From assembly GCA_017470945.1 (NCBI GenBank), contig JAFUXH010000100.1, positions 1,084 to 65,083 of the forward strand: DNA of 64,000 bases, read 5' to 3'. The stretch is from Clostridia bacterium. Lineage in GTDB: Bacteria > Bacillota > Clostridia > Christensenellales > Aristaeellaceae. Position 1 is the stretch's first letter. Every line of letters begins with the position of its first letter. A model generated the notes under the pieces. The model was given only the letters and a program-made list of their open reading frames with translations. It was not told the origin of the DNA and did not search any database. Of the stretch, positions 23,113 to 49,819 are shown one piece after another. The translations under genes were made by a program, and so were the position numbers.

Positions 23113-24282
23113 TTATGGAAGGGCTTCGTAGGCCAGATTGCGCAGCATGGGATGGATTTCGCTGTACACCTTGATCATGCCCAGGATTTCCTGGGTGTAA
23201 AAAATGCTGACGTGGTTCACCGGGTCGATCAGGGCGTAGGCCCCGGCGGCCCCGTCCCAGCCGAATTCGCCCTGCGGGGTGGGGGAATCCTCCGGGTGGA
23301 TCAGGGTGCGCACGCCCAGGCCGTAGCCGTATTCCATCCGCCAGGGGGCCTGGTATTCCGGCAGGATCTCCGTCCGCAGCTGGTTCACCGCCAGGGCGGC
23401 GATACCGTCGGGCGTCAGGATGCGCCGCCCGGTTTTCCCCACGCCGCCGTTGGCCAGGGCGTCGATCACGGCGCTGTAGGCGTCCACCGTGCAGGCGATG
23501 CCCGCGCCGCCGCTTTCGTACCGGTCGGTCAGGCGGTAGGCGTTTTTCTGCTCCACGGGGCGGATCTCATCGGAGCCCATGACGCCGGTGTATTGGGCGG
23601 TCAGCCGGGGGCGCAGGGCGTCGTCCACCTGGAAATACATATCCCGGATCCCCAGGGGGTCGAACAGGCTGTCCTTCAGGTACTGCCCGTAGGTTTTCCC
23701 GCTGACCACCTCGATCACCCCGGCGATGACGTCGTGGCCCAGGCTGTAGGTGTAATGGCTGCCGGGCTCAAACAGCAGGGGCATCTGTGCGATGGCCCCC
23801 ATCATTTCCCGGGTGGTGGCCCGGCCATCCGTCTTATCCCGTAAGGCGCGGATGGGCTCGCTGCCGATATCGTAGCTCAGGCCCGACGTCATGCTCATGA
23901 GCATCCGCAGGGTGATGGGCGTTGACGCGTCGTGGCAGGGGTCGTCTTGCTTGGGAAGCACCGGCGGCCACTGGCCGATCACATAGTGATCCGCCACGCG
24001 CATGGCGCGGAATTCCGGCAGATAATTCGACACCGGGTCGTCCAGCTTCATTTTTCCCTGCTCGATCAGCTGCATGGCCGCCGTCATGGTGATCACTTTG
24101 GTGGCGGAGTAGATGTAATACAGGTCCTGATCGGTGACGGGCTGGGTTTTTTCATAATCCCGGCAGCCGCCTGAATGGCGGTAAATGGTTTCGTGATCCT
24201 TGGTGATTTTGATATCGAAGCCCGGCACGCCGTAGCGGGCGTTCAGGCTGTCCAGGTACGCTGTCAATTTGCTGAAATCCAT
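23113..24282 (-). CDS. serine hydrolase, beta-lactamase/esterase (class C-like) family
   Basis: MDFSKLTAYL start (track ORF trimmed by 100 codons). SxxK motif YSATK. Confidence 0.85.
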   Translation of the reverse strand: MDFSKLTAYLDSLNARYGVPGFDIKITKDHETIYRHSGGCRDYEKTQPVTDQDLYYIYSATKVITMTAAMQLIEQGKMKLDDPVSNYLPEFRAMRVADHYVIGQWPPVLPKQDDPCHDASTPITLRMLMSMTSGLSYDIGSEPIRALRDKTDGRATTREMMGAIAQMPLLFEPGSHYTYSLGHDVIAGVIEVVSGKTYGQYLKDSLFDPLGIRDMYFQVDDALRPRLTAQYTGVMGSDEIRPVEQKNAYRLTDRYESGGAGIACTVDAYSAVIDALANGGVGKTGRRILTPDGIAALAVNQLRTEILPEYQAPWRMEYGYGLGVRTLIHPEDSPTPQGEFGWDGAAGAYALIDPVNHVSIFYTQEILGMIKVYSEIHPMLRNLAYEALP

Positions 24283-24301
24283 GATGCTCCCCCCCTTGTT
24301 A

Positions 24302-25780
24302 TCAGGCCAGCAGATCCCGGAGCAGCCGGGCCATATGCATCGACAGCTCCCCGTAGCAATCCGCCGCGTACAGCACGCCGCCGCATTCGCTGACCTGCCG
24401 GCCCAGCACCATGCGGAAGAACCAGGCGGCGGGCAGATACAATGCCCCATCCCGCTCCACCGCTTCGCAGTCCATGGCGAACAGATGGTTGCTGACGACC
24501 GCGCCGATGCTGCCCCGGGCGAACTGCGCCGTAACGCCGCCCGGCAGGGCCATTTCCGCCGACGCGCCTTGATCCCATTCATTCAGGGAAGCGCCGGCGG
24601 CCTTTGCCAGGAAGGAAACGGGGGCCATCAGGTAGCGGCCCCGCACGATCTCGCCGCCGTTCAGGCCATGGTATTTCAGCTTCTGCCAATAAAAGGCGGG
24701 GCCGGCCAGCGGCTCGATTTCGCCGTTCAGCCAGGCGTTTGCGTGCTTGTCCGCCAGGGCGGCGGAAAAGGCGTTGGGGGTAAAGGGCTCGGCGGGCTCG
24801 GTCATTTCGATGCGGCCGTCGGGCAGCCGCTTTGCGCCGGAGAACAGGTAATCCCACACGAATTCGGCGTCGTCCAGCGTTTGGCCGTGATCCCGGTTTT
24901 TCACGTCGCAGAACACGTAATCCGCCTGCCGTCCCCGGTAATAGGCCAGGTTTTTTTCGCCCACGATCTTGATGCGCGGCAGCTCCTCGCAGCCGTTCAC
25001 GGTGAGCCAGTACCGCCGGTTGTGCACCACGGCGTCCTCGAAGGATTCATCGGAGAAAGGCGGGGGGCCATCCAGTTCCAGGCGGGTCTGCCAGGCGGCG
25101 ACGGGCAGGGAGCGGTGGGTCACCGTGCCGTCGGGGTGGAAAAACTGGGCTTTGCGGGATGTGCCGCCGCTGCCCGCCATGCCGGCGAACAGGTGGGCGT
25201 AGTGCTTGGCCATCATGGCGGTCATGGCGTTGCCCATGGACATGCCCTGCATGTATATCCGGCTTTCGTCGATGTGATAGCGATCCTTCATCCGCTGAAT
25301 CAGCGCCAGCACCAGGTTGGCGTCGTGGTTTTCCCTGATATCATCGGGGAAGGGGTTCATCCAGAAGCCCGAGGCGTTGGGGGTGGTCAACTCCTCTTTG
25401 CGCTCCGGCTCGCACTCCACCTGCCAGAAGCGGCGGGCGTGGGCGCTGGGAAACACCAGGATGAAGCCCTCCCGGTCGGCCACCAGCGTCCAGCCGGTGT
25501 AAATGCACTGGCCCCAGCCGGTCATCAAGCCGCCGTGCATGGAAAACACCAGCGGCGTTTTTTTCGCGGGGTCGTAGCTGGCCGGCACGTATTCGTACCA
25601 GGTGTCCTCCAGCCCGTCGCCCACCACGTCGCCGTGGAATTCCTGCAGCCTTTCTGGGTACACCTGGGAATTGTTGCCGTTTTCATTCACCACCATTTTG
25701 CTGCCCTTGATGGCTTCGGGCAGATAATCCCGGTTCTGATCGTTGGGTTCGCCGGGCAGGATCACCATTTTTCCGGGCAT
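24302..25780 (-). CDS. PHB-depolymerase/feruloyl-esterase-family alpha/beta hydrolase with ~170-aa C-terminal domain (paralog 1)
   Basis: FSMHGG, GMSMGN nucleophile elbow. No signal peptide. Close paralog of 26809..28320. Confidence 0.8.
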   Translation of the reverse strand: MPGKMVILPGEPNDQNRDYLPEAIKGSKMVVNENGNNSQVYPERLQEFHGDVVGDGLEDTWYEYVPASYDPAKKTPLVFSMHGGLMTGWGQCIYTGWTLVADREGFILVFPSAHARRFWQVECEPERKEELTTPNASGFWMNPFPDDIRENHDANLVLALIQRMKDRYHIDESRIYMQGMSMGNAMTAMMAKHYAHLFAGMAGSGGTSRKAQFFHPDGTVTHRSLPVAAWQTRLELDGPPPFSDESFEDAVVHNRRYWLTVNGCEELPRIKIVGEKNLAYYRGRQADYVFCDVKNRDHGQTLDDAEFVWDYLFSGAKRLPDGRIEMTEPAEPFTPNAFSAALADKHANAWLNGEIEPLAGPAFYWQKLKYHGLNGGEIVRGRYLMAPVSFLAKAAGASLNEWDQGASAEMALPGGVTAQFARGSIGAVVSNHLFAMDCEAVERDGALYLPAAWFFRMVLGRQVSECGGVLYAADCYGELSMHMARLLRDLLA

Positions 25781-25805: not shown

Positions 25806-26783
25806 TCAATGGTTGCTTCTATTGCTTGTGGAGCCCCGGCGGATGCACTTGACCTCCAGCGTGGAGCGGATGGGCACCGCCTTGCCCTCAATTTTTTGCA
25901 GCAGGATTTCGACGGCGTACCGGCCCATATCCTCGATGGGCTGGGCGATGGTGGTCATATCCAAAAAGCCGGAAAGATCCAGCCCGTCAAAGCTCACCAC
26001 CGGCAATTGATCCAGAAGCGGAAGGCCCTCGGCCCGCGTCTGCTGCGTCAGCTGGGCGGCCATGTGATCGCCGTTCATGAAAAAGCCGTCGACCTCCGGG
26101 TGGGCCCGCAGGAAATCGGCCAATTCCCGGGCCGCCTGGGGCCGGAAAGTATCGATCTCCACCTGGGAACAGGTCAATTGGGCCTCTGCGATGGTTTTCT
26201 GAAAGCCGGCCAATCGCCCGTGCAGGGGCATGTACGCCGGCACGGGGTAGGTGACGATCAGCGGATGGCGGCATCCGGCGGCAATCAGCTCCTGCGCCGC
26301 CAAAGCGCCGCCCGTCACGTTATCGCAGGTGACGGAGGGGATGCGCTCCATTTCCCGGTCGATGGCCACGATGGGCAAATCGAGGGCGTTGTATTTTTCC
26401 GGGTCGCCCACGTAGCTGCAAATCAGCATGCCGTCCACCTTGTTGGCCTTCAGCAAGGCCACCATATCCATTTCCCGCTGCTCCTCGTATTCCGAGTGGC
26501 AGATCATCAGCCGGAAGCCGTGCTGGCAGCAGGCATCCTCCACCGCGTCGGCGATGCGGGCAAACAGGCCGTAGCTGATCCGCGGCACGATCAGGCCGAT
26601 GATGCCGCTGCGCTTGGTTTGCAGCGCCCGGGCCATCACGTCGGGGTAATAATTCAGCTCCTTCATGGCCTTTTGGATTTTTTTCACCGTTTGGGGCTTG
26701 ACCACGTCCGGCTTGTTCATCATGCGGGATACCGTTGCCACCGATACGCCCGCCCGTTCGGCCACGTCCTTGATGGTCGCCAT
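25806..26783 (-). CDS. LacI-family transcriptional regulator
   Basis: MATIKDVAERAGVSVATVSRMMN HTH. 325 aa. Confidence 0.9.
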   Translation of the reverse strand: MATIKDVAERAGVSVATVSRMMNKPDVVKPQTVKKIQKAMKELNYYPDVMARALQTKRSGIIGLIVPRISYGLFARIADAVEDACCQHGFRLMICHSEYEEQREMDMVALLKANKVDGMLICSYVGDPEKYNALDLPIVAIDREMERIPSVTCDNVTGGALAAQELIAAGCRHPLIVTYPVPAYMPLHGRLAGFQKTIAEAQLTCSQVEIDTFRPQAARELADFLRAHPEVDGFFMNGDHMAAQLTQQTRAEGLPLLDQLPVVSFDGLDLSGFLDMTTIAQPIEDMGRYAVEILLQKIEGKAVPIRSTLEVKCIRRGSTSNRSNH

Positions 26784-26808: not shown

Positions 26809-28320
26809 TCAGGGCAGCAGCGCGTCGAAATCGTCCGGCACGGGATGCCCGGTCAGCAGATCCCGGATCAGATCGGCCATGTACAGGGACAATTGGCTGA
26901 AGTGATCCGCGGCGTACCAAACGCCGTCGCAGGCGGACACCGTCCAGTTGAACAGATAGCGGCAGAACCATTCCACGCTGACCAGCAATTCCCCGTTCCT
27001 GCGCAGCGCCTCGCAGTACATGGCCCGCACGTGGCCGTCGATCACGCAGGCGATGCTGCCCCGGGCAAATTGCAGCGTGCGGCCGTCCGGCAGCGTCATC
27101 ACGCAGGCGGCCCCGTCCTGGGATGGGTCGCAGGCGGCGCCGAACGCTTCCGCCAGGAAGGACAGCGGCGCGCAGATATATTCGCCCCGCACCTTCTCGC
27201 CGCCGTTCAGCCCGTGGTATTTCAGCTTCTGCCACACGACGGGGGCGGTGCGCATCGCCTGTACCCGGTTGCCCAGCCAGGCGTTTGCTTCGCCGGGGAT
27301 CAGGGCGAAGGCCCGTTGATCCCCCTGACGCGGGCACACGGAGGGGGAGGACACGATGGCGCCGTCCGCTTCCCGGCGCAGGCCGGAGAACAGGTAATCC
27401 CACACCAGGGCCGCGTCGTCCAGCGATTGGCCGTGATCCCTGTTTTTGATATCCAGGTACACCAGATCGGCCTTTTTGCCGGTGTAGAACGCGAAATTGT
27501 TTTCCCCTTCGATTTTGATTTGCGGGGTGGGGGCGCATTCGTTGATCCGCATCCAGTACAGCCGGTTTTTCCGGTTCACGTCCTTTTGCTCCCGGGGGTC
27601 CGGCGGCACGTCGTTCAATTCCGGCCGGCTTTGCCAGATGGCGGTGGGCCCACCCTGATTCTTGATTTTTCCCTTTTCGTCAAACAGCAGGGAGGGAAAG
27701 GTGGCGCAGGCGGAGCCCGCCGCCCCGGCCAGCAGATGCCCGTAGTGCCGGGCGAACAGCGACGTCATCATGTTGCCCATGCTCATGCCCTGCATGAAGA
27801 TGCGCCCGGGGTCGATGTTATAATCCCGCTGCATTTTTTCGATCAGGGCCAGGATCATCTGGGCGTCGTGGTTCTTGCGGATATCGGTGGATTGGTTGAT
27901 ATCCAGGTCGTCGGGGTCCGGGGCCCCTTCCATGGAATCCCACTTGGCCCATTCCACGCACCAGACCCGGCCCGCGTGGGCGTTGGGGAACAGCACGATG
28001 AAGCCGTCCCGTTCCGCCATCATCGTCCAGGAGGTATAGATGGCCTGGCCCCAGCCGGTCATCAATCCCCCGTGCAGGGAAACCACCAGGGGCGTTTTTT
28101 TCGCCGGGTCGTAGGAGGCAGGCACGTACACGAACCAGGTGTCCGCTTCGCCGTCCTCCGTCACCACGCCGTGGAATTCCTTCAGCCGCGGGGGATAGGG
28201 CTGGGAATTGTTGCCGTTTTCATTGACCACGATATCGGAATGGTAAATCTTTTCCGGCAGGTAATCCCGGTTATCATCGTCGGGCGTGCCGGGCAGCAGG
28301 GGAAAGGCGGGGGTAGGCAT
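26809..28320 (-). CDS. PHB-depolymerase/feruloyl-esterase-family alpha/beta hydrolase with C-terminal domain (paralog 2)
   Basis: VSLHGG, GMSMGN. Collinear with 24302..25780 along its full length. Confidence 0.8.
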   Translation of the reverse strand: MPTPAFPLLPGTPDDDNRDYLPEKIYHSDIVVNENGNNSQPYPPRLKEFHGVVTEDGEADTWFVYVPASYDPAKKTPLVVSLHGGLMTGWGQAIYTSWTMMAERDGFIVLFPNAHAGRVWCVEWAKWDSMEGAPDPDDLDINQSTDIRKNHDAQMILALIEKMQRDYNIDPGRIFMQGMSMGNMMTSLFARHYGHLLAGAAGSACATFPSLLFDEKGKIKNQGGPTAIWQSRPELNDVPPDPREQKDVNRKNRLYWMRINECAPTPQIKIEGENNFAFYTGKKADLVYLDIKNRDHGQSLDDAALVWDYLFSGLRREADGAIVSSPSVCPRQGDQRAFALIPGEANAWLGNRVQAMRTAPVVWQKLKYHGLNGGEKVRGEYICAPLSFLAEAFGAACDPSQDGAACVMTLPDGRTLQFARGSIACVIDGHVRAMYCEALRRNGELLVSVEWFCRYLFNWTVSACDGVWYAADHFSQLSLYMADLIRDLLTGHPVPDDFDALLP

Positions 28321-28376: not shown

Positions 28377-28395
28377 ATGTCAATCGTTTACATTA
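28377..28395. promoter_or_regulatory. LacI-type operator atgtcaatcgtttacatta
   Basis: Imperfect palindrome 57 nt upstream of the esterase-lacI-esterase operon start. Identical 19-mer at 43944-43962. Confidence 0.55.
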
Positions 28396-28492: not shown

Positions 28493-30220
28493 ATGAAGAA
28501 AGTGTATTCTGCCCGGCGCAGGCTGATCCATTATTTTTCCCTGCTGCTGGCGCTGACGCTGCTGGTGCTGTTGGCGTTCGGCGGGTATTCCATGTGGACC
28601 TATGATCAGCAATTGCGCTATTGCGCCGACGCCGCCCTGGAGCTGTACCGGGAAGCCCTGCTGGGGGAAACCCAGCGGCTGGTGGCCCTGAATCAGCAGG
28701 TCAGCGCCGATTGGATGGATTTCCGCCTGCTGACCGCCGCGTCGCTGGATCAGGGGCAAAGAAGCGTGCTGCGCTACCGGCTGAAATCGGCCATCGAAAT
28801 CGCGGTGCCGGATACGGGGCTGATCCTGCTGTGCGACGCGGACGGGGACTGGCTGCAGTATACCTACGGCCGCAGGGTGCTGAACGCGGGCGGGCTGATG
28901 GGCGTGGAGCATCAAAACGCCGCCCATGCCCTGCGGGACGCCTGCCTGCGCGTGCCGGAGGAGCAGCAAACGATGTGGCTGGTGGCGGAATGCGGTTCGT
29001 TTACATTCCTGTACAACGTATATTCCTACAAGCAGCTGCGCATCTGCTCCGCCATCGAGCTGCATACCTTTGCCCGGGAAAGCGCGGCCTCCTCCACGGA
29101 AAATATCCAATTGCTCTTCGAGCAGGACGGCGCTTTCCTGACCGGCCGGGAATTGGCGGCGGAAAAGCAATTGCGCGCGGGGCAGCTGCCCGGCAGCCGG
29201 GGCCTGTTCTTTGATTACGTGCTGGATTACGAGGCGATCCCCGCCCTGAGGATCGGCCTGTGCTGCCTGATCCCGGTGCAGGGCATCTGGCAGTACTCCC
29301 GCATTTCGCTGCTGGTGCTGGCGGTGATGGCGGCGATCTGCGTGGCGGGGTATGTGCACACCTATCGGCTGATGGATCACATCGTGATCTACCCGCTGAA
29401 GCAGGTATCGGCCCTGTCCCACCAATTGTCCCAGGTGGAGGGGGAGGACAGCCCCCGCATCCTGGAGCGGGATCAGGTGGAGGAATTGAACACCCTGCGG
29501 GATTCTTTGAACCACCTGGCCGCCCAGAAGGTGGAATTGCAGAAGCGGAGCGACGATTTTGAAATGGAAAAGGAGCACGCCCAGCTGCAATACTATCAAT
29601 TGCAAACCCGCTCCCACTTCTTCCTCAACTGCCTGAAAAGCCTATATGGCATGCTGGAAACCCGGGATTTTTCCCGGATGCAAACCATGATCATCGCCTT
29701 CAGCAATCATTTGCGCTTCATTTTCCATGACAACCTGACCCTGGTGCCCGTGCGGGCGGAAATGGACGAGGTGGCCGACTATCACCGCATCATTTCCATG
29801 GACAGCCGCCAGCCCCTGATCCTGACGAAGGAGGTAGCGCCGGACGCCGAGCGCTGCCTGGTGCCGCCCCTGATCGTGCAGACCTTCCTGGAAAACGCCT
29901 ATAAATACAACGGCCGGGGCCGGGAGGTGCTGCATTTTACCGTTCGGATCGACCGGCTGGAATACGAAGGGAAGCCCCGGCTGCGCATCCGTGTTTGCGA
30001 CGACGGGGTGGGCTACCCGGCCGATATGCTGGCCTGGCTGAACGGGCAAAGCGCCCCGGGCGCCTTCGATCAATACCACATTGGCATCAACAACCTGCGC
30101 CGGCGCATGGCCATCCTGTATTCCGGCGATTTTGAACTGGCCTTTTTCAATGGCGCCTCCGGCGGCGCCAGCATCCTGATCAGCATCCCTGCCCGGGAGG
30201 AAGGAGAGGACGCGCCATGA
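28493..30220 (+). CDS. sensor histidine kinase, YesM/LytS-type
   Basis: Two transmembrane segments flanking a sensor domain. His_kinase H-box region SHFFLNCLKS. N-box FLENAYKYN. Confidence 0.88.
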   Translation: MKKVYSARRRLIHYFSLLLALTLLVLLAFGGYSMWTYDQQLRYCADAALELYREALLGETQRLVALNQQVSADWMDFRLLTAASLDQGQRSVLRYRLKSAIEIAVPDTGLILLCDADGDWLQYTYGRRVLNAGGLMGVEHQNAAHALRDACLRVPEEQQTMWLVAECGSFTFLYNVYSYKQLRICSAIELHTFARESAASSTENIQLLFEQDGAFLTGRELAAEKQLRAGQLPGSRGLFFDYVLDYEAIPALRIGLCCLIPVQGIWQYSRISLLVLAVMAAICVAGYVHTYRLMDHIVIYPLKQVSALSHQLSQVEGEDSPRILERDQVEELNTLRDSLNHLAAQKVELQKRSDDFEMEKEHAQLQYYQLQTRSHFFLNCLKSLYGMLETRDFSRMQTMIIAFSNHLRFIFHDNLTLVPVRAEMDEVADYHRIISMDSRQPLILTKEVAPDAERCLVPPLIVQTFLENAYKYNGRGREVLHFTVRIDRLEYEGKPRLRIRVCDDGVGYPADMLAWLNGQSAPGAFDQYHIGINNLRRRMAILYSGDFELAFFNGASGGASILISIPAREEGEDAP

Positions 30221-31809
30221 CCGTTTTGCTGGTGGATGATCAGCGCTCCATCATCGAGGGCCTGCTCAGCGGCGTGCCCTTCGACGAGATCGGCTTTGAC
30301 ACGGTGCTCACCGCCAACGACGCGGGGGAGGCCTGGGCGCAATTGGCGGAACAGCCGGTGGACGTGCTGCTGACCGACATTGAAATGCCGGGGGAAAGCG
30401 GCATGGAGCTGGTGAAAAAGGCGCGGGATCGGTTTCCCGATCTATTGTGCATCCTGCTCACCTCCCATGCCGATTTTGCCTTTGCCAAGGAAAGCGTGCG
30501 CCTGGGCTGCTTCGATTACCTGGTGCAGCCCGCCCCGTATCAGGATATCGCCGCCTGCCTGCGCCGGGCGTTCGATCAACAGGTGCGTTCGGCCCAGCAA
30601 AAATACATGCAAAGCCTGGGCCGCATCGTGCAGACCAGCGAACCGGGCATGACCAGCCACATGGTGATGAAGCTGTATTCCGCCGATCCCCGGGATGTGG
30701 CCGAGGGCATGCAGTATCTGATCGCCTGCGGCTATGTGGTGGAGCGGGATACGCCGGTCAGGCTGTGCGTGGCGGTGGATTACGCCTATTTGAAGCGGCT
30801 GCCGGAGCGATTGAGCGAGGACGCCGTGATCAAGATCATCCGCGAAAGCTTCGCCCTGGCCCCCGGCCACCCCGTGCCGCTGATCACCAGGAATCCCTAC
30901 CGGCAGTTCGTGGTGATGCTGTGCCACGCCGACGGCGCGCAGCCCCCCGCCTGCACGGCGGAAACCTTCGCCTCCGCCCTGGAAGAAATGACCCGCCGGC
31001 TGGGCCGGGAGCCCACCCTGTACGTGGGGCCCGATACCACGCTGCTGGGCGCCCGCGGCGTGCTGCCCGCCCTGCACCGGCACATCGATAACAACGTGCT
31101 GGAAAAAACGGGCGTGATCATGGCCGATGAGCGGGCGGTGGCGTCCGACGCTTCCGCCGGCGGGGCCGATATGTTCCTCCGGTGGCAAAGCCTGCTGGAA
31201 AATGAAAAATACGAAATTTTAGGCCGGGAGGTCCAGGCGTATCTGGATCGGTCCCAGCGGGATAAGCTGGGGCTGCACAGCCTGTCCGACCTGCACCAGC
31301 GGCTGACCCAGCTGATTTTCGAGCATCTGCACAGCCGGCAGATCGATATCATGCGGCTGTTCACCCAGGATTACACCTACGCCATGTATATGGACAGCTT
31401 CAAAACCGTGCACGCCCTGCGGGAAGGGGTGAATTTCCTGTTGGAGGCCGCCGCCGGCCAGCGCCACGTCAGCCTGGAGCAAAGCGACGTGGACCGGGCG
31501 AAGGCGTATATTTACGCCCACCTGAACCAGCCTATGTACGTGACCGACGTGGCGGCTCACGTGAACCTGAGCAGCGAATATTTCACCAAGCTGTTCAAAA
31601 AGGAAACGGGCCAAAACATCAAGGATTTCATCACCCAGGCCAAAATCAACGCCGCCAGGGACCTGCTGGAGCATTCCGATATCCCCGTCAGCCTGGTGGC
31701 GCTGGAAATGGGCTACGACAATTTTTCCCACTTCACCCAGATCTTCAAAAAGGCCTGCGGCCTGACCCCCAGCGAGTACCGGAAGGAATGGAAGGAGAGG
31801 AAGCTGTAA
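30217..31809 (+). CDS. response regulator with AraC-type output domain (YesN-like)
   Basis: Receiver domain VLLVDDQ...DVLLTDIEMPG. C-terminal AraC HTH SEYFTKLFKKETG / FSHFTQIFKKACG. Overlaps the kinase stop. Confidence 0.9.
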   Translation: MTVLLVDDQRSIIEGLLSGVPFDEIGFDTVLTANDAGEAWAQLAEQPVDVLLTDIEMPGESGMELVKKARDRFPDLLCILLTSHADFAFAKESVRLGCFDYLVQPAPYQDIAACLRRAFDQQVRSAQQKYMQSLGRIVQTSEPGMTSHMVMKLYSADPRDVAEGMQYLIACGYVVERDTPVRLCVAVDYAYLKRLPERLSEDAVIKIIRESFALAPGHPVPLITRNPYRQFVVMLCHADGAQPPACTAETFASALEEMTRRLGREPTLYVGPDTTLLGARGVLPALHRHIDNNVLEKTGVIMADERAVASDASAGGADMFLRWQSLLENEKYEILGREVQAYLDRSQRDKLGLHSLSDLHQRLTQLIFEHLHSRQIDIMRLFTQDYTYAMYMDSFKTVHALREGVNFLLEAAAGQRHVSLEQSDVDRAKAYIYAHLNQPMYVTDVAAHVNLSSEYFTKLFKKETGQNIKDFITQAKINAARDLLEHSDIPVSLVALEMGYDNFSHFTQIFKKACGLTPSEYRKEWKERKL

Positions 31810-41692: not shown

Positions 41693-41704
41693 TCCCACGA
41701 AAGA

Positions 41705-41742: not shown

Positions 41743-41784
41743 ATGGCGGCGCCGAGGGACCGCTTATTCCACGGTGAAGGGCGT

Positions 41785-42021: not shown

Positions 42022-42049
42022 GAACGCAGCGAACCGCTGTTCACTGCGC

Positions 42050-42304
42050 CAGACTATCGAAAAACCCGGGATGCATCGAAGGGGTCACAGCCCCTTCGAT
42101 TGAAATCCGCAGCCGGCGACATGCGCGGCGGCGAGGAGCAACCGGAGGTTGCTTCTGCTATCCATTTCTGACCGCGAAAATAGGGTTTTTGCTTCCTTGG
42201 AAGCCGAAAACCCATTTTTGCAGGAAATGGATGCTCCGAATCAAAGCGGAATCCTGATTCCGATTTGATTCGCAGGTTGTCGAAAACACTTTTTCGACAA
42301 CCTG
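42050..42304 (-). repeat. family B multi-hairpin repeat, copy 2 (short form, inverted)
   Basis: Reverse complement aligns with 108-270 and 420-477 of copy 1. The ~110-nt central block differs. Source of spurious ORF 42054..42449. Confidence 0.8.
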
Positions 42305-42345
42305 ACGCAGCGAACTTCTGCTCGCTGCGTTCAGGATCCCATCGG

Positions 42346-43050
42346 TCAGCCCGCCATCGCTTCCGCGATGATCTGCGCCAACGATCCGGTGTATAGGGAG
42401 GCGCCCCAGGCTTCCGCCAGGCGGCGGCTGTCCTGGGCATGTGCTTCATCGCCGCAGCCCAGCCAGATTTCGTCCTGGGGCCGATCGTGGGCGAACAGGT
42501 CCTTTTCGCTGCCGGCCAGGCTGGTCAATTCGCCCGCGACTGCCTGCAGCATGGGCGCGGACAGGAAGGGATCTTCCTCTCCCGCAGCGAGCTTTCTTCC
42601 CAGCGCCGCCAGGTCGAAGCAGCCGTTGAAGGCGATGATTTTGCGGAATCTGCCCGGGCTGCGCAGGGCCACCGCGCAGGCGGCGTAAGCGCCCCAGCCG
42701 ATCCCGCCGATCATGGCCCGGTCGTTGTCCACCGGGAACATATGCTGGCAGATGCCCGGGAATTCTTCCCCGGCGAAGCGGCCGAATTTCCCGCCCCAGC
42801 GCAGGTCGTGCCCCAGGGAATGGGAAATCCAGGGGCAGCAGATGATGAGCTGCCGCGCGTTGCACAGCTTTTCCAGTTCCGGCATGCGCAGAAACTGCAT
42901 TGGGTTTTCCCCGTTGTCGTGCAGCAGGTACAGCACGGGATAGCGCTGCCCGGCTTCTCCCGTCAGCAGGGCGGCGTCGGGCAGCAGGGTGACGGCCTCA
43001 AAGCTGCCGAACAGGCAGGTGGATAAAGCGTTCCATTGCATGATCGCCAT
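42346..43050 (-). CDS. esterase-family-like protein lacking the nucleophile serine
   Basis: YLLHDNGEN. The elbow position reads GIGWG (Gly codon at ~42697-42699). Start MAIMQWNAL lies 1 nt after the upstream stop. Confidence 0.7.
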   Translation of the reverse strand: MAIMQWNALSTCLFGSFEAVTLLPDAALLTGEAGQRYPVLYLLHDNGENPMQFLRMPELEKLCNARQLIICCPWISHSLGHDLRWGGKFGRFAGEEFPGICQHMFPVDNDRAMIGGIGWGAYAACAVALRSPGRFRKIIAFNGCFDLAALGRKLAAGEEDPFLSAPMLQAVAGELTSLAGSEKDLFAHDRPQDEIWLGCGDEAHAQDSRRLAEAWGASLYTGSLAQIIAEAMAG

Positions 43051-43051: not shown

Positions 43052-43897
43052 TTACTGCGCCTCCATTTCAAATGTACCGCTCAGGGGGATCCAGTGAAGG
43101 AACCGCTCGACGTGCCGGTTGCAGTACTCCCAGTCATGCATGCCCTGATCCCGGATATCCTCAAATTCCAGGCCCATTTCGTGCATTTTGTCCATGACGG
43201 GGTAATTTTCCGGGGCGGTAGGGTCCTGCGCGCCGACGGCGATGTAGAATTTCGGCAGCTCAGTGCCGGCCTTCAAGTGCTTTTCCAGCATATACAGGTT
43301 GTCCGCCGGGGTGTTGCGCAGCTTGGCGGCGGAGCCGAAGGCGGCCCACAGGGTGCCGAACTGCTCCTCGCAGAAATCATCCCGCAGGCAGGGCGCGCCC
43401 AGGTGCTCCGTGGGCGGGATGGGCTGGCGGGGGATCAGGCCGATGGGCCCGGCGAAGGTGCCGCAGGCGGCGAACATATCCGGCCGCTGCATGGCGAATT
43501 TGAAGGCGCCGTAGCCGCCCATGGAAAAGCCGGCCACGAAGTTTTCTTCCCGCTTTTCCGAAAGGGGGAACACCCGGCGCAGGTATGCCGGCAGCTCCTG
43601 GGAAATCTGGGTCCAGTACTTGTAATCGCCCTCCGCCGTATCCATGTAGCCGGCGTAGGAAATGCCGGGCATCACCACGGCTACCCCTTTCTGGGCGGCG
43701 AACAGCTCCACGGCGGTGTAACGGCTCCAGTCCGAATGGTCAAAGCCGCCGCCGCACAGCAGCCACAGGGCGGGGTAGCGGTAATCCTTGGGCCGGTCCG
43801 CCAGGGAATACCCCCATTTGTTTTCCGGGATGATCACATTCACCCCCATGCGCATTTTCATGGCCGGTGAAAAGTAATCCAGTTTGCACAATGCCAT
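43052..43897 (-). CDS. esterase-D/'putative esterase' family alpha/beta hydrolase
   Basis: GFSMGGYGA elbow. 281 aa. Confidence 0.85.
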   Translation of the reverse strand: MALCKLDYFSPAMKMRMGVNVIIPENKWGYSLADRPKDYRYPALWLLCGGGFDHSDWSRYTAVELFAAQKGVAVVMPGISYAGYMDTAEGDYKYWTQISQELPAYLRRVFPLSEKREENFVAGFSMGGYGAFKFAMQRPDMFAACGTFAGPIGLIPRQPIPPTEHLGAPCLRDDFCEEQFGTLWAAFGSAAKLRNTPADNLYMLEKHLKAGTELPKFYIAVGAQDPTAPENYPVMDKMHEMGLEFEDIRDQGMHDWEYCNRHVERFLHWIPLSGTFEMEAQ

Positions 43898-43943: not shown

Positions 43944-43962
43944 ATGTCAATCGTTTACATTA
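43944..43962. promoter_or_regulatory. LacI-type operator atgtcaatcgtttacatta (identical to 28377-28395)
   Basis: Lies 47 nt upstream of the minus-strand esterase start and just upstream of the plus-strand -35 box. Confidence 0.55.
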
Positions 43963-43968
43963 ATTTTC

Positions 43969-43997
43969 TTGACATAAAAAAGGACTTGTGATATATT
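43969..43997 (+). promoter_or_regulatory. promoter TTGACA, 17-nt spacer, TATATT
   Basis: Consensus -35 box with 17-nt spacing. Drives the phosphorylase/esterase operon. Confidence 0.5.
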
Positions 43998-44013
43998 AAT
44001 TTTGAAAAATGAA

Positions 44014-44029
44014 TTAAAACGTTTACATT
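44014..44029. promoter_or_regulatory. operator half-site copy (ttaaaacgtttacatt)
   Basis: Shares CGTTTACAT with the 19-mer. Located between the promoter and the RBS. Confidence 0.4.
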
Positions 44030-44051
44030 CTGTAAAACGGAGGGGTTGCCT

Positions 44052-45525: not shown

Positions 45526-47022
45526 ATGGCCTGCGTCACACTGCCGGGCATTTTCCGGGATGGCATGGTATTGCAGCGGCAAAAGCCCATCTGCGTTTGG
45601 GGGGAGGCCGAGGGGGCGGATACGGTTCGCGTTTCCCTGGCGCAAAGCAGCGCCGTGGCGGAGGTGATCGACGGACGCTGGCGGGCGTACCTGCCCCCCA
45701 TGCAGGCGGCCACGGGCCTGACGATGACCGTTTGCGCCCAGGGGGAAGCGGTGACGCTGAACGACGTGGCGGTGGGCGAGGTGTGGCTGGCCGGCGGGCA
45801 AAGCAACATGGAATTCCAGCTGCGCTTCGACGCGGAGCACGAAACGGCCTGCCGGGTCCGGAACCCCGATATCCGCTGCTTCGAGGTGCCCAAGCGCGCC
45901 TTTGCGGGCCAGGAGAAGGAAAGGGACCTGCACTATGCCGGCATCTGGCGGAAGGCCGGGCCGGGGGATTCGGAATATTTCACGGCGGTGGGCTTCTATT
46001 TCGCCTGCCGGCTGTGGGATACGCTCCGCGTGCCGGTGGGCGTCATCAACTGCACCTGGGGCGGCACGTCGGCCTCCGCCTGGGTGGATGAAAGCTGCCT
46101 GACCGGCGAGCTTGCGTTCTTTCTGGACCGGGCGAAGGAAGCCCGGGCGCAAATCGACCCCCAAACGGAGCGGGAGGAATACCGGAAGATCCAGCAGTCC
46201 GTCGACGCCATGCCCCCCATGATGGGCGTGATCAACGATCAGCCCATTTTCCCGGACGAGGGCATGAAAGCCACCATGGCCCACATGGATCGCTACAACC
46301 TGTGCGCTTATTCTCCCTTCCGGCCCAGCGGGCTGTATCACGCCATGCTGCAAACCATCGTGCCCTACACCCTGCGGGGGGTCATTTGGTACCAGGGGGA
46401 ATCGGATGAATATTTTGGCTCGCGGTTTGAGCCCCTCACCCGGGCGCTGATCCAAAATTGGCGCGCCTTGTGGCAGGAGGAGCTGCCCTTCCTGATGGTG
46501 CAGCTGGCCGCCTTTGAATACATGGTGGAGCCGCTGGATTTCGTGCCCATGCGCCGCATGCAGCATAAGATCGCCGGGGATACGCCCCACGTGCATTTGA
46601 TTTGCGCCATGGATGTGGGCCTGCGCTACGACATCCATCCCAAGGAAAAGCGGCCGGTGGGGGATCGGCTGGCCCTGCAGGCCCTGCACCACGTGTACGG
46701 CCTGGCCCTGATGTCGGATTCGCCGTCCCTCTATGCGGCGCGTCGGAAGGGGAACACCATTGCGATCACCTTCCGGGACGGCGACGGCCTGTGGGTGAAG
46801 GGGGACGCCCCTGGGCGGATCGACCTGACCGTTGACGGGCAGGATACGGCGGAATTCACCGCCTGCGTGAAGGACGATCAGCTGCTCCTCACTTCGGATC
46901 TGTTCGCCGGCGCCGGCAGCGTCACGGTGCGCTTCGCCTGGCGGCCCTTCTGCGATGACAACGTATACAACCGGGCCGGGCTGCCCGTGTTGCCCTTTGA
47001 AGTAACTGTAACGGAAGAATAG
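45526..47022 (+). CDS. sialate-O-acetylesterase-like (SASA/DUF303) carbohydrate esterase
   Basis: FRDGMVLQR and WLAGGQSNM motifs. 498 aa. Confidence 0.85.
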   Translation: MACVTLPGIFRDGMVLQRQKPICVWGEAEGADTVRVSLAQSSAVAEVIDGRWRAYLPPMQAATGLTMTVCAQGEAVTLNDVAVGEVWLAGGQSNMEFQLRFDAEHETACRVRNPDIRCFEVPKRAFAGQEKERDLHYAGIWRKAGPGDSEYFTAVGFYFACRLWDTLRVPVGVINCTWGGTSASAWVDESCLTGELAFFLDRAKEARAQIDPQTEREEYRKIQQSVDAMPPMMGVINDQPIFPDEGMKATMAHMDRYNLCAYSPFRPSGLYHAMLQTIVPYTLRGVIWYQGESDEYFGSRFEPLTRALIQNWRALWQEELPFLMVQLAAFEYMVEPLDFVPMRRMQHKIAGDTPHVHLICAMDVGLRYDIHPKEKRPVGDRLALQALHHVYGLALMSDSPSLYAARRKGNTIAITFRDGDGLWVKGDAPGRIDLTVDGQDTAEFTACVKDDQLLLTSDLFAGAGSVTVRFAWRPFCDDNVYNRAGLPVLPFEVTVTEE

Positions 47023-47032
47023 GAGGATCAAA

Positions 47033-48094
47033 ATGATGACGGTACATGCTTTGACCGGCGCGGGCTTTCACGGCTGGTGCGCCTTTTCCTTCGACGTGCT
47101 GGGCGAATGCGCGGCGCTTTCCCCGGAGCAATGGGAAATCACCGTGCATACGCCCAAGGGGGATGAAAAGAAACGGGTGCTGCGAACGGAGCAGATCCCC
47201 GGCGGCGTGCGGCTGATCCCGGAAAATTTCCCCTTCGGGCAGGATTTTTCCGTGCGCGGCGGCGATTGCCATTTCACGAAGGCGGATATCAGCCGGGTGC
47301 GCGTGGATGGCGACGAATTGTTCGACCGGAAGCGGGAGGGCGACGTGATCTACCGCCTGCACAGCCCGAAGGCCGGGGGCAAGCGGCCGCTGCTTTTGTT
47401 CCTGCACGGCGGCGGTGAATGCGGCTGGGACAATGAAAAGCAATTGGTGGGCACCCCCGGGGCGGTGCTGCTGGCCCGGAAGTACCCCGATCTGTACGTG
47501 ATGGCGCCCCAGGCCCCGGGGGATATTACCAAAATGCTGCCCGACCCGGAAAAAACGGTGTTCAAAAATACGTTCCATTCCTTCCGGCAGATGGAGGGCA
47601 CCGGCTGGCACAGGGAATACCTGGCCGGGGTGTGCGGGGTGATCCGGCGTATGATCGCCGAGGGCCTGGTGGATGAAAAGCGGGTGTATGTCACCGGCCT
47701 GTCGATGGGCGGCGGCGGCGCGCTGCGGGCCCTGTCGGTCGGCGCGGGGCTGTTCGCGGCGGCGGTGGCCATTTGCCCCACCATGATGCCCGAAACCTTC
47801 GCCATCCTGAAAACCATCCCGCCTCAAACCGGCATTTGGGTGGCCGCCGCTTACGCCGATTTCACCCTGTACCGGCACAAATACATCGTGGATGGCATCC
47901 TGGCACTGAAGGATGCGGGCCATCCCAACGCCCATTTGACGCTGTTTTCCCCCGAGGAAATGGAAAAATACGGCTATGCCGATCCCGATATGCCCCTGGA
48001 GCAGAAGCTGCTGGACAACCATAATTCCTGGACGTTGGTATACCACGGCGAGTACGGCATCATCGATTGGCTGGTCAATCAATACCGGGCATAA
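47033..48094 (+). CDS. alpha/beta hydrolase (phospholipase/carboxylesterase or dienelactone-hydrolase-like)
   Basis: LFLHGGGE, GLSMGGGGA elbow. Confidence 0.75.
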   Translation: MMTVHALTGAGFHGWCAFSFDVLGECAALSPEQWEITVHTPKGDEKKRVLRTEQIPGGVRLIPENFPFGQDFSVRGGDCHFTKADISRVRVDGDELFDRKREGDVIYRLHSPKAGGKRPLLLFLHGGGECGWDNEKQLVGTPGAVLLARKYPDLYVMAPQAPGDITKMLPDPEKTVFKNTFHSFRQMEGTGWHREYLAGVCGVIRRMIAEGLVDEKRVYVTGLSMGGGGALRALSVGAGLFAAAVAICPTMMPETFAILKTIPPQTGIWVAAAYADFTLYRHKYIVDGILALKDAGHPNAHLTLFSPEEMEKYGYADPDMPLEQKLLDNHNSWTLVYHGEYGIIDWLVNQYRA

Positions 48095-48109: not shown

Positions 48110-48922
48110 ATGTCGCTGCTGAGAATCAATTTTGAAAGCCAATACCTGGCCAATAATCACGAGGTGTACGTGATCCTGCCCGATAAGCCCCGGGATCAGA
48201 CCCCGGCGCAGTTTTACCGCTCCGGAAAAAAATACAAGGTGCTGTGGCTGCTCCATGGCACCTACGGGGATCAAAGCGATTGGGTGCGGAAAACCAACAT
48301 CGAATTGTACGCCGAGGAAAAGGACCTGGTGGTGGTGATGCCCCCGGCATTGAATTCCAATTACTCCAATTGGAACGATACCATGCTGGGCTTCAAAATG
48401 TTCGATTACCTGACGGAGGAATTGATGCCCTTCATCTACGGCTGGCTGCCGGTATCCGACAGACGGGAGAATAATTTCATCGCCGGTTTGTCGATGGGCG
48501 GAAGGGGAACCATCAAATACGCCGTCAACCACCCGGATCGGTTCGCCGCGGCGGCGGTGCTGTCGGCCGCGCCGATGGATTTTGACGAATTGAAGCCCGG
48601 CCATCCCTGCCCCCTGCTGAACACCGAGGATCCCCGGATGCGCGCCACGCTGCGCAACGCCGGGGGCGTGGAGGCATTCAAGGCGTCCAATGAAAACGTG
48701 TGGGCCATTATCGACCGCCTGGCCCCCACCGGCAAATTGCCCCGGCTCATGTTCGCCTGCGGGGAGCAGGATCAATTGCTGTATCCCTTCTATCTGGCCT
48801 TCCAGCGGCATTGCCGGGAAATCGGCCTGGAGGCCCATTGGTATTCCCTGCCGGGATACAAGCACGAATGGCGCTTCTGGGATCTGGGCATTCAGGAGGC
48901 GCTGCGCTTCTTCGGGCTGTGA
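48110..48922 (+). CDS. esterase-D/'putative esterase' family alpha/beta hydrolase
   Basis: WLLHGTYGD, GLSMGGRG. Confidence 0.85.
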   Translation: MSLLRINFESQYLANNHEVYVILPDKPRDQTPAQFYRSGKKYKVLWLLHGTYGDQSDWVRKTNIELYAEEKDLVVVMPPALNSNYSNWNDTMLGFKMFDYLTEELMPFIYGWLPVSDRRENNFIAGLSMGGRGTIKYAVNHPDRFAAAAVLSAAPMDFDELKPGHPCPLLNTEDPRMRATLRNAGGVEAFKASNENVWAIIDRLAPTGKLPRLMFACGEQDQLLYPFYLAFQRHCREIGLEAHWYSLPGYKHEWRFWDLGIQEALRFFGL

Positions 48923-48949
48923 TTGAGCGACAAGCAAAGGAGGATCCCC

Positions 48950-49819
48950 ATGAAAGAATACAGCTATCACGACGTCAATTTGCGGGGCACTATTGAACGG
49001 GTGACCTACCGCACCACCAACCGGCAGGGGGAGGAGCGGAACAAATACTGCCTGGTGTACCTGCCCAAAGGGTATGACGAAAAGGACTGCGAAAAGAAAT
49101 ACAACATCCTGTATCTGATCCATGGCGGCGGCGGCAGCCCCGACGCCTGGCTGGATTGCTGTCAGGTGAAAAACATGCTGGACTTCTGCATCGACGCCGG
49201 GGAGATTGAGCCGCTGATCGTGGTGTTCCCCACCTTCTACAAGGAGCGGATCGCCCGGCTGGGCCCGCCGGTGGCGGAGGAGGAAAGGAGCCACGTGCTT
49301 TTCTTCCAGAAAGAGCTGGCGGAGGAACTGCTGCCCGCCATAGAGGGCCGGTATCATACCTATGCCCGGAACGGATCGCAGGAGGCGCTGCGCGCCTCCC
49401 GGCAGCACCGGGCCATCGGCGGCTTCTCCATGGGCGGGGCCACCACCTGGTTCGCGTTCACGCACCACCTGGATTTGTTTGCCCGCTTTGCCCCGCTCAG
49501 CGGCGACTGCTGGGAGGTGGAGGCCAAGGGCGGCGGCGCCCGTCCCCGGGAAACCGCCGCGGCCCTGCGGGACGCCGTGGCGCAATTTGGCTATACCCCC
49601 GACGACTTCCGCATCTTCTGCGCCACCGGGGCCCAGGATATCGCCTGCGCGCCGCTGAGTGCCCAGATCGACGCTATGAAGCAGCTGCCCGATACCTTCC
49701 GCTTCCAGGAGGATCTCACCCAGGGCAACGCCCACTATTTCGTGGCGGAGGGTAAGGTGCACTGCTACGAGCACGTTTATCAATACCTGTATAACATCCT
49801 GCCGTACCTGTTCCTGTGA
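48950..49819 (+). CDS. 'putative esterase' family alpha/beta hydrolase
   Basis: MKEYSYHD behind AAGGAGGA. YLIHGGGGS, GFSMGGAT. Confidence 0.82.
   Translation: MKEYSYHDVNLRGTIERVTYRTTNRQGEERNKYCLVYLPKGYDEKDCEKKYNILYLIHGGGGSPDAWLDCCQVKNMLDFCIDAGEIEPLIVVFPTFYKERIARLGPPVAEEERSHVLFFQKELAEELLPAIEGRYHTYARNGSQEALRASRQHRAIGGFSMGGATTWFAFTHHLDLFARFAPLSGDCWEVEAKGGGARPRETAAALRDAVAQFGYTPDDFRIFCATGAQDIACAPLSAQIDAMKQLPDTFRFQEDLTQGNAHYFVAEGKVHCYEHVYQYLYNILPYLFL

Follow-up and report, generated by a model that had tools for sequence, protein, structure and literature searches.

Thirteen esterase-fold genes and one GH13_18 phosphorylase: a bacterial locus probably devoted to acylated small alpha-glucosides, perhaps sucrose esters

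Why should a bacterium keep genes for thirteen esterase-type proteins beside an oligosaccharide importer and only one enzyme that cleaves glycosidic bonds? The question is raised by positions 23113-49819 of a 64,000-nucleotide stretch of DNA from a Clostridia bacterium (contig JAFUXH010000100.1, positions 1,084 to 65,083; the whole stretch is called the window below). The original prediction, made from the window alone, was that an acylated sucrose-type substrate is imported, deacylated inside the cell and cleaved by a single phosphorylase of subfamily GH13_18 (GH, glycoside hydrolase). Synteny, co-operonic genes, fructokinase-like kinases in relatives and the lack of a conserved GH gene agree with this scheme, and two observations do not sit easily with it: the phosphorylase has a non-canonical specificity loop (loop A), and two of the 13 esterase-fold proteins lack the nucleophile serine. 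From comparative genomics, on which the assignment of every locus member rests, we favor the intracellular catabolism of acylated sucrose-type glycosides, namely acetylated or hydroxycinnamoylated sucrose esters and acylsugars, with a probability of roughly 55%; the broader statement, that the locus serves the catabolism of an acylated small alpha-glucoside, is considerably safer and seems to us probable.

Selection of open reading frames (ORFs) guided by the G+C content at third codon positions (GC3), together with inspection of start codons and Shine-Dalgarno sequences, gave 21 genes in this span, in a part of the window (up to about 53.5 kb) with a G+C content of about 61%. Independent gene calls on metagenome contigs have the same starts for PHBest2 (503 amino acids), LacI (325), PHBest1 (492), YesM (575), YesN (530) and the phosphorylase (478); the names and coordinates are summarized in Table 1. 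For the phosphorylase, a TTG start at 44046 was rejected, because an exact database look-up was empty and the 478-residue database copy begins with the ATG at 44076. All 21 products were assigned to families with Pfam and NCBIfam. Pfam returned the tally of esterase folds that had been claimed, class by class, for 13 of the 21 genes: two of PF00144, two of PF10503, six of PF00756, one CE2_N plus GDSL protein (CE, carbohydrate esterase), one SASA protein (PF03629) and one generic alpha/beta-hydrolase. The other eight were likewise as predicted, namely a YesM-like histidine kinase (His_kinase/HATPase), a YesN-like regulator (Response_reg plus AraC), a LacI regulator, a solute-binding protein (SBP) with DUF3502 and two BPD_transp_1 permeases as the LplABC-type importer, a MatE pump and one Alpha-amylase-family protein, the phosphorylase. 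Pfam detected no further GH family in 23113-49819, and the claim that the phosphorylase is the sole glycoside-cleaving enzyme of the span holds. The GH gene nearest to the locus is a GH88 gene (8579-9625), 13.5 kb upstream, in another cluster that has its own LacI and is set apart by ThiF, phosphoesterase, M20 peptidase and Opp genes.

The deacylation was predicted to be intracellular since the esterases inspected at that stage had no signal peptide. When the maximum 12-residue hydropathy of the N-terminus was used as a test for leaders, all 13 esterase-fold proteins stayed at or below 1.67, in comparison with 2.1-3.15 for the SBP and the membrane proteins. The SBP has a lipoprotein-like leader, and no other gene product of the locus has a signal peptide, which bears out the predicted cellular location.

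What, then, does the phosphorylase cleave? It scored 620 bits on the NCBIfam model TIGR03852 sucrose_gtfA (cut-off 334), and its matches in the Protein Data Bank (PDB) were 7qqj (494 bits) and 7qqi (491 bits), both of sucrose phosphorylase (SP) type, the sucrose 6(F)-phosphate phosphorylase (SPP) TtSPP 6s9v (408 bits), the glucosylglycerol phosphorylase (GGoP) 7xdq (392 bits), the SP BaSP 1r7a (333 bits) and the SPP IcSPP 6s9u (222 bits), with E-values of 1e-147 to 1e-65 against SP, SPP and GGoP structures. This full-length homology to characterized enzymes places the protein in GH13_18. In the alignment with BaSP (reference sequence identical to 1r7a_A, whose residue numbering is used here), the catalytic residues Asp192 (nucleophile), Glu232 (acid/base) and Asp290, the sampled -1-subsite residues Arg190, His289 and Arg399, and the segments RFDAF, PEIHE, LDTHDG and PRSI are all kept. 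The conservation of the catalytic and sampled -1-subsite residues suggests that a free glucosyl group is required (PMC7178133).

In GH13_18, loop A is accepted as the fingerprint from which specificity is read (PMC7178133). SP has the motif N(L/V)D(I/L/V)YQ, in which Asp342 binds the fructosyl OH4 (PMC7178133); SPP has GFDVHQ (promiscuous), KxxYYQ (strict) or FDTYQ, GGoP has VGAIYQ, and glucosylglycerate phosphorylase (GGaP) has Glu replacing Gln in loop A plus (T/S)ETN at beta5 (PMC7178133, PMC12703740). In the window enzyme the loop reads ...LPGMIKQTGKKATRYQLN, with an insertion of 5-6 residues followed by ATRYQ (KKATRYQ) and without Asp342. This is not the fingerprint of SP sensu stricto (EC 2.4.1.7), and with KATRYQ and only 222 bits to IcSPP the enzyme does not fit the SPP motifs, nor does it fit GGoP or GGaP, as Gln345 is kept, beta5 reads PEIHEN and loop A differs. 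Judged by its sequence, the window phosphorylase is a GH13_18 member that fails the test for every characterized specificity; the original assignment to the sucrose phosphorylase family stands as GH13_18 homology and falls as far as it meant a canonical SP.

The variant loop belongs to a clade of at least 120 clusters at 90% identity. In the 120 closest clusters (identity of at least 68%), position 342 is always Q, R, K, S or T and never Asp, and the five fingerprint positions read AQRYQ in 38, ARQYQ in 14, VQRYQ in 12 and similarly in the others. The loop-A consensus of the clade, (I/V)K(T/M)SGKKA(Q/R)(R/Q)YQ, is rich in Lys and Arg, and further clade-specific changes are F191, EIHENY and E-E/D-P-R. 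The source names shown in the hit list are all sucrose phosphorylase or sucrose 6(F)-phosphate phosphorylase. A minority of the clade members, for example those in loci L012 and L016, formally fit KxxYYQ. The possibility that the clade is a strict SPP, raised by the Lys in loop A, was rejected on the grounds of low similarity to IcSPP, import by an ABC transporter, and the association with fructokinases, not with a sucrose kinase or phosphofructokinase.

Do the esterases belong to this phosphorylase? The original prediction had named, as an outcome that would count against it, a phosphorylase unrelated to the esterase substrates and separately regulated, and this is contradicted by the conserved gene neighborhood and by a shared operator-like 17-mer (see below). 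Using the phosphorylase as the query against one genome per GTDB species, we obtained 80 loci, in each of which loop A was read and a tblastn search with the 21 window proteins was made. Loop A was of the variant type in 35 loci and of the canonical type (NLDxYQ) in 45, and PHBest homologues were found within 10 kb of the phosphorylase in 30 of the 35 variant-loop loci and in none of the 45 canonical ones. The association of phosphorylase, esterases and transporter is kept in about 35 genomes from several families. Besides the Bacilli described below, the carriers include Lachnospiraceae (Herbinix hemicellulosilytica, Faecalicatena contorta, NK3A20, Mediterraneibacter, Eisenbergiella and Acetatifactor), Christensenellaceae, Vallitaleaceae, Gemmiger/Subdoligranulum and metagenome-assembled genomes (MAGs) of Anaerolineae, and their sources are gut, rumen and digester.

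When the ORFs from 31 syntenic loci were clustered, LplB was present in 29 loci (66-76% identical in related loci), PHBest in 28 (84 copies, often 3-5 per locus), EstD types in 28 (57 copies), LplC in 27, the SBP in 25, an MFS transporter absent from the window in 25, BLac1 and ABhyd in 19 each, a CE4 deacetylase in 14, BLac2 in 13, LacI and the EstD3 type in 12 each, YesN in 10, YesM in 9 and SASA in 8, and MatE was seen in a few relatives. The usual gene order is MFS-SBP / LplB-LplC-GH13, the phosphorylase mostly standing directly after the permeases and being co-operonic with permeases or esterases. An efflux-type transporter is thus nearly always present in the relatives (mostly MFS, and MATE here), which fits the earlier suggestion that the MATE pump exports the released acids. 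Two conserved clusters of 'unknown' type (c16 and c19) were rejected as antisense ORF artefacts.

The conserved clusters without a counterpart in the window, together with 44 representative neighboring ORFs, gave MFS, MatE, CE4, COesterase and regulators in Pfam, and no GH family was found among the 25 best-populated of the 71 matched Pfam families. In addition, no GH10, GH11, GH43, GH51, GH26, GH28 or polysaccharide lyase (PL) gene was found in the approximately 35 related loci. The locus has the features by which a Gram-positive utilization locus is recognized, a conserved co-localization of ABC importer, regulators and carbohydrate-active enzymes, and the enzymes of a classic xylan or pectin locus (GH10/11/43/51/67/115, GH28, PL) are missing both from 23113-49819 and from the conserved neighbors.

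Among the loci with a canonical loop A, we noted three in which the gene of an SP with NLDIYQ comes immediately after LplB/LplC-type permease gene(s) and an esterase-D-type gene (L035:4943-11395, L044:4897-11404 and L050:8273-11410), the hosts being a Treponema MAG, Ca. Mediterraneibacter cottocaccae and a Bacillota MAG; an SBP match was present in L035 and L044 only. These loci hint that the pairing of SP with esterase-D-type enzymes and LplABC importers is broader than the variant clade.

The best available evidence for the aglycone comes from the Bacilli versions of the locus, in Cohnella candidum, Radiobacillus sp., Paenibacillus oryzae and Paenibacillus sp. YIM B09110, whose phosphorylases are 68-70% identical to that of the window and have the same loop A. 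The genes of these loci are closely packed and point mostly in one direction (SBP-LplB-LplC-(PHBest)-MFS-EstD-PHBest-(EstD)-GH13-HSL-type esterase; HSL, hormone-sensitive lipase), all four have the MFS transporter, and their esterase orthologues have the same lengths and leaderless N-termini. A sugar kinase is encoded within or at the edge of all four, of the ROK family in three and of the PfkB family in one. The ROK kinases scored 296-298 bits on the NCBIfam model of fructokinase ScrK and 91-106 bits on the next model, glucokinase; the best model for the PfkB kinase was also fructokinase (246 bits). GH32 genes lie near two of the four loci. The recruitment of two non-homologous families of fructokinase-like kinases suggests a sucrose-like core, and the aglycone released by the phosphorylase is probably fructose.

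Among the esterases, the G-x-S-x-G nucleophile elbow is present in EstD2, EstD4, EstD5, EstD6, PHBest1, PHBest2 and ABhyd. PHBest1 has a GMSMG motif and is 53% identical to PHBest2. The latter has 826 homologues at E <= 1e-10, the best 120 of which are 497-538 residues long and, where named, nearly all 'hypothetical protein'. In its AF2 model (pLDDT 81.6), searched with Foldseek, the N-terminal approximately 300 residues are nearest to the PHB-depolymerase-family esterases 9byu and 8daj (PHB, polyhydroxybutyrate) and also near to fungal CE1 feruloyl and acetyl-xylan esterases, the top matches covering the catalytic half only. The C-terminal approximately 190 residues of both PHBest proteins (about 315-503 in PHBest2) are beta-rich and strongly conserved, with weak similarity to Cu_amine_oxidN1. 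This domain is usually found in secreted Firmicute proteins, and the two PHBest proteins nonetheless have no signal peptide.

EstD5 is the best-conserved esterase of the locus (67-75% identity, with GLSMG in all 26 orthologues), and its PDB matches are esterase 4rgy, 'esterase family protein' 6vh9/7l0a, tributyrin esterase 2uz0 and several ferulic acid esterases. The GFSMG motif of EstD4 is kept in 20 orthologues; EstD6, whose best NCBIfam model is a xylanase/feruloyl-esterase (51 bits), has no orthologue in the related loci. BLac1 is assigned to family VIII by its S-x-x-K motif (S59-A-T-K) and by EstB/EstU1-type homology, its best PDB matches being the family VIII esterases EstU1 4ivi (167 bits) and Est-Y29. 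BLac2 has only distant relatives in the PDB, and its best NCBIfam model is a beta-lactamase-like 3-succinylated cholic acid synthase (167 bits, far under the cut-off). The CE2-like protein combines PF17996 and PF13472 with GDSIT at residue 153, its catalytic His not being located; SASA matches carbohydrate esterase FI8 9h4u (249 bits) and 7kmm (208 bits), and ABhyd matches 3doh, an 'esterase' (68 bits).

In the alignment, the nucleophile Ser is replaced by Ala in EstD1 (GYAMG) and by Gly in EstD3 (GIGWG). The Ala is kept in all seven EstD1 orthologues of the related loci and is also the form in both Paenibacillus loci (L085:12596-13447 and L086:11472-12323), and the Gly is kept in all 14 EstD3 orthologues. 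The predicted number of esterases is thus correct as a count of folds, whereas 11 of the 13 look catalytically competent. EstD1 and EstD3 are conserved nucleophile-less paralogues, and the remaining 11 are plausible hydrolases; binding, regulation and acyl migration are among the possible roles of the two.

With only short gaps between neighbors, the 21 genes fall into six transcription units. PHBest2-LacI-PHBest1-BLac1, SBP-BLac2-CE2-EstD2-MATE and EstD4-EstD3 are on the minus strand, and YesM-YesN-EstD1, LplB-LplC and GH13-SASA-ABhyd-EstD5-EstD6 are on the plus strand. The phosphorylase gene is the first of a five-gene operon with four esterases, in which the gaps are 10-27 bp. The 17-mer ATGTCAATCGTTTACAT has two exact copies (0.05 chance matches expected), upstream of the phosphorylase operon, in the EstD4/GH13 intergenic region, and upstream of the LacI operon. 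The LacI-type palindrome TTAAAACGTTTACA begins at 44014, upstream of GH13, and in five of the related loci (L003, L005, L007, L013 and L073) the near-identical TGAAAACGTTTACA precedes the phosphorylase gene by about 110 bp. The shared 17-mer and the palindrome suggest that the in-locus LacI, which we infer to bind at these operator-like sites, controls the phosphorylase and esterase operons together. A strict 16-bp LacI palindrome, TGTNAANCGNTTNACA, had no match in the syntenic loci, and a scan with the 14-mer consensus gave sites in one sub-group only, so the operator is not conserved throughout the clade.

Taken together, the pathway may run as follows. The intact ester would be imported by the lipoprotein SBP, whose matches in the PDB are too distant to point to a ligand (86 bits to 5swa/5mlt), with the LplB and LplC permeases. 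About 11 competent intracellular esterases, whose folds and motifs fall into five kinds (CE1-like PHB-depolymerase type, esterase-D type, family VIII, CE2/SGNH and SASA), would then strip acyl groups from different positions, the multiplicity of the enzymes suggesting position- and acyl-specific steps. Going by its family and gene context, the GH13_18 phosphorylase would act on the glucoside once it is free, or almost free, of acyl groups and give alpha-glucose-1-phosphate and the aglycone, probably fructose, and the fructose would be phosphorylated by a fructokinase, encoded in the locus in the Bacilli relatives and presumably elsewhere in this genome. The released organic or phenolic acids would be exported by the MATE pump, a role taken by MFS in most relatives, and expression would be controlled by the in-locus LacI at the shared operator-like site and by YesMN. 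Plants widely grown as feed and crops contain plausible natural substrates, for example the 3,6-diferuloyl-di/tri-acetylsucroses, whose concentration in maize roots is about 0.1-0.2 mM (bioRxiv 10.1101/332056).

Several points weigh against sucrose esters as the substrate. The acyl type (acetyl, feruloyl or fatty acyl) is not assignable from the family sequence of the esterases; sucrose esters are specialized metabolites and may be too rare for so widespread a locus; the scores of the ROK and PfkB kinases are all under the NCBIfam equivalog cut-offs, and no fructokinase is encoded in the Clostridia-type loci, the window included, within the stretch examined; and a weakly matching GH could hide in the neighboring ORFs beyond the best-populated Pfam families. 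The phosphorylase lacks the Asp342 that binds the fructosyl OH4 in BaSP, and its loop A is basic and lengthened, so plain sucrose may not be its preferred substrate. The last point is also what would be seen if the same architecture served another acylated alpha-glucoside with a non-fructose or anionic aglycone, such as acylated glucosylglycerol or glucosylglycerate, glycolipid head groups, or a sucrose derivative that keeps an acidic or phosphorylated substituent until it reaches the phosphorylase. The fingerprint of the clade is unlike those of all known specificities, and its Lys/Arg-rich loop with the 5-6-residue insertion recalls characterized SPPs, in which basic residues of this subsite bind the 6F-phosphate (PMC7178133). 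We nevertheless consider this reading unlikely, given the fructokinase-like ROK and PfkB kinases and GH32 genes that accompany the Bacilli versions, the SP type of the nearest characterized relatives (7qqj/7qqi), and the lack of glycerate or glycerol kinase, phosphatase and lipase-specific genes among the conserved neighbors; moreover, with ABC uptake and no phosphotransferase system (PTS), a phosphorylated sugar is not expected on import. A related idea, the catabolism of teichoic acid (glucosyl-glycerol-phosphate with D-Ala ester) or glycolipid head groups, was raised by the basic loop and a weak FmtA match and was dropped, since conserved phosphodiesterase or lipase-specific genes were not found and the esterases are of carbohydrate-esterase type.

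The esterases themselves invite two other explanations. Hemicellulose loci of Firmicutes typically combine CE1-, CE2-, CE4- and SASA-type esterases with LplABC and YesMN, similarity to feruloyl and acetyl-xylan esterases is seen in EstD5, EstD6 and PHBest, and a cluster of GH88, CE4 and SGNH genes lies 13 kb upstream in the window; the locus could be an accessory one for acetylated or feruloylated oligosaccharides of xylan, mannan or pectin, with the GHs encoded elsewhere and the phosphorylase handling co-occurring sucrose. That is improbable in view of the related loci, in which the GH and PL genes named above were not found, the esterases travel with the variant phosphorylase clade only and the phosphorylase usually directly follows the permeases. 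Unrelated genes lie between the GH88 cluster and the locus, and that cluster has a LacI of its own. Matches to the PHB-depolymerase family, and the frequency of family VIII esterases and efflux pumps in xenobiotic metabolism, would also suit a general island for the detoxification of esters or polyesters (PHB oligomers, fragments of cutin or synthetic polyesters, xenobiotic esters) that adjoins sugar genes by chance. We regard this as very improbable, because a sugar ABC importer, phosphorylase and kinase are kept with the esterases across distant taxa, all of the enzymes are cytoplasmic, and conserved genes of hydroxyacid or aromatic catabolism are missing from the locus. The deacylation and phosphorolysis of acylated sucrose-type glycosides thus remains the reading that we prefer.

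A bolder form of the preferred reading, put forward tentatively and at somewhat less than an even chance, is that the locus represents a widespread pathway for plant acyl-sucrose defense compounds, such as phenylpropanoid sucrose esters and acylsugars, in which the GH13_18 clade would have a new specificity, for example for sucrose still acylated on its fructose or for a sucrose analogue, and the nucleophile-less esterase-fold proteins would have a non-hydrolytic role, for instance in substrate binding or presentation or in helping acyl groups to migrate. If the preferred reading is right, the locus would explain how Firmicutes of gut, rumen, digester and soil, and some Anaerolineae, consume or detoxify esterified sucrose-type plant metabolites. 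In the searchable literature, in which subscription papers are thinly covered and absence is not proof, we found no description of this locus, of the loop-A variant or of any bacterial catabolic locus for such metabolites. The locus is a lead to a new phosphorylase specificity and to the bacterial breakdown of plant sucrose esters; loop A is the guide that workers on glycoside phosphorylases use when looking for new activities with which to synthesize glycosides. The locus also offers a set of co-evolved cytoplasmic esterases, probably regioselective on sugar esters, and two conserved pseudo-esterase families, and there are cultured carriers in which they could be studied (Cohnella candidum, Paenibacillus oryzae, Herbinix hemicellulosilytica, Faecalicatena contorta and Lachnospiraceae NK3A20).

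Table 1. Genes and operator-like sites of the esterase-phosphorylase locus (window positions; HTH, helix-turn-helix; TM, transmembrane)
Feature	Position	Strand	Evidence
BLac1, family-VIII (class-C beta-lactamase-fold) carboxylesterase, 389 aa, cytoplasmic	23113..24282	-	PF00144 197 bits
PHBest1, ~490-aa PHB-depolymerase/CE1-like esterase with conserved C-terminal beta-rich domain	24302..25780	-	PF10503, weak PF07833
LacI-family repressor, within esterase operon	25806..26783	-	PF00356 + Peripla_BP
PHBest2, ~500-aa PHB-depolymerase/CE1-like esterase	26809..28320	-	PF10503
Operator-like 17-mer ATGTCAATCGTTTACAT, PHBest2/YesM divergent intergenic region	28377..28393	.	exact second copy 43944-43960
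YesM-like sensor histidine kinase, N-terminal TM segment	28493..30220	+	PF06580, PF02518
YesN-like response regulator (receiver + AraC HTH)	30217..31809	+	PF00072, PF12833
EstD1, esterase-D-fold paralogue without nucleophile Ser (GYAMG), co-transcribed with YesMN	31810..32676	+	PF00756
MATE efflux pump, final gene of SBP operon	33051..34397	-	PF01554 166 bits
EstD2, esterase-D/CE1-like serine esterase	34394..35284	-	PF00756, GLSMG motif
CE2-like SGNH acetylesterase	35305..36402	-	PF17996 CE2_N + PF13472/PF00657, GDSIT motif
BLac2, 506-aa beta-lactamase-fold serine hydrolase	36425..37945	-	PF00144, SFGK + YLN motifs
LplA-type solute-binding lipoprotein (DUF3502), leader MKVSKLLSLVLALALVLSC	38028..39515	-	PF12010, PF01547
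LplB-type ABC permease	39821..40786	+	PF00528
LplC-type ABC permease	40814..41692	+	PF00528
EstD3, truncated esterase-D-fold paralogue without nucleophile Ser (GIGWG)	42346..43050	-	PF00756 28.5 bits
EstD4, esterase-D/CE1-like serine esterase	43052..43897	-	PF00756, GFSMG
Divergent promoter region: 17-mer ATGTCAATCGTTTACAT 43944-43960 + LacI-type palindrome TTAAAACGTTTACA 44014-44027	43944..44027	.	motif scans
GH13_18 glycoside phosphorylase, distinct esterase-linked clade, 478 aa	44076..45512	+	TIGR03852 620 bits
SASA-type carbohydrate O-acetylesterase	45526..47022	+	PF03629, GQSNM motif
ABhyd, 353-aa alpha/beta-hydrolase carboxylesterase	47033..48094	+	PF12697, PF00326, GLSMG
EstD5, short-chain esterase-D-type esterase	48110..48922	+	PF00756, GLSMG
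EstD6, CE1-like esterase, specific to this genome	48950..49819	+	PF00756, GFSMG

Within the locus, the 650 bp between the convergent LplC and EstD3 genes (41693-42345) have no GC3-supported ORF and contain several hairpin-forming inverted repeats. Upstream, the cluster at 6330-10840 consists of an SGNH esterase (6330-6995), a CE4 deacetylase (7550-8539), the GH88 gene mentioned above, whose product is an unsaturated glucuronyl hydrolase, and a divergent LacI (9818-10840); it probably serves an unsaturated uronate-oligosaccharide pathway outside the conserved locus. Its CE4 gene was considered as a member of the locus and rejected, the product being only about 38% identical to the CE4 of the related loci. 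An M20 peptidase gene and a complete Opp/Dpp-type peptide ABC transporter (SBP_bac_5, two ATPases and two permeases) follow at 14119-20902, and a ZIP metal transporter at 21678-22457. Just downstream of the locus lies a gene for a GerM-like 'Germane' sporulation protein (49927-51003, minus), suggesting a spore-forming Bacillota host, followed by genes for an AAA_21/AbiEii-type ATPase (51108-51983, plus) and a 418-residue protein with a faint match to the DUF6782 metallopeptidase (52032-53285, minus). From 53500 to 64000 the G+C content falls from about 61% to 45-52%, and this part is probably a mobile element that has integrated here. Its genes are those of a nucleotidyltransferase (54728-55276, minus), two HTH regulators (57120-58028, minus; 58313-59053, plus), a protein of ArdC-N/zincin anti-restriction type (60998-61837, plus) and a tyrosine integrase (62803-63774, minus). 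Scanning the window for Rfam families and for tRNAs gave no match.

How does the locus compare with known systems? With SP of GH13_18 (BaSP 1r7a), the window phosphorylase shares the family, the fold and the catalytic and sampled -1 residues, and some of its relatives have a fructokinase gene nearby; it differs in having ATRYQ (A/V-Q/R/K-R/Q-Y-Q in the clade) instead of (L/V)D(I/L/V)YQ, in the 5-6-residue insertion, and in being encoded among many esterases, not beside a sucrose permease or an alpha-galactosidase. The SPP loci (RgSPP of R. gnavus E1 with AgaSK, TtSPP of T. thermosaccharolyticum, and IcSPP of I. coccineus) also have a GH13_18 enzyme with a basic +1 loop in a Firmicute ABC-transporter locus, but the window enzyme has 222 bits to IcSPP against 494 to the SP type and the motif KATRYQ, its locus is without the sucrose-kinase/alpha-galactosidase or PTS context (PMC6521584), and the Bacilli loci carry a fructokinase-type kinase, not a phosphofructokinase. 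Esterase-containing hemicellulose loci of gut bacteria have the same co-localization of transporter, regulator and CE1/CE2/SASA enzymes, as in Firmicute loci with LplABC and YesMN and in the xylan polysaccharide utilization locus of Dysgonomonas mossii, with several CE enzymes (PMC8040265). Unlike these, the window locus has no polysaccharide-cleaving GH or PL, its esterases are cytoplasmic and make up 13 of its 21 genes by fold, and its only enzyme for a glycosidic bond is a phosphorylase of disaccharide type. The chemistry proposed here is that of the plant acylsugar acylhydrolases, the ASH carboxylesterases of tomato, in which serine carboxylesterases remove acyl groups from acylsucroses stepwise; these enzymes are eukaryotic, have an unrelated locus organization and are not coupled to import, phosphorolysis or efflux. 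Overall, the locus resembles a Gram-positive oligosaccharide utilization locus joined to an SP pathway, and differs in that esterases dominate, the steps after import are cytoplasmic and the phosphorylase belongs to an uncharacterized clade of GH13_18.

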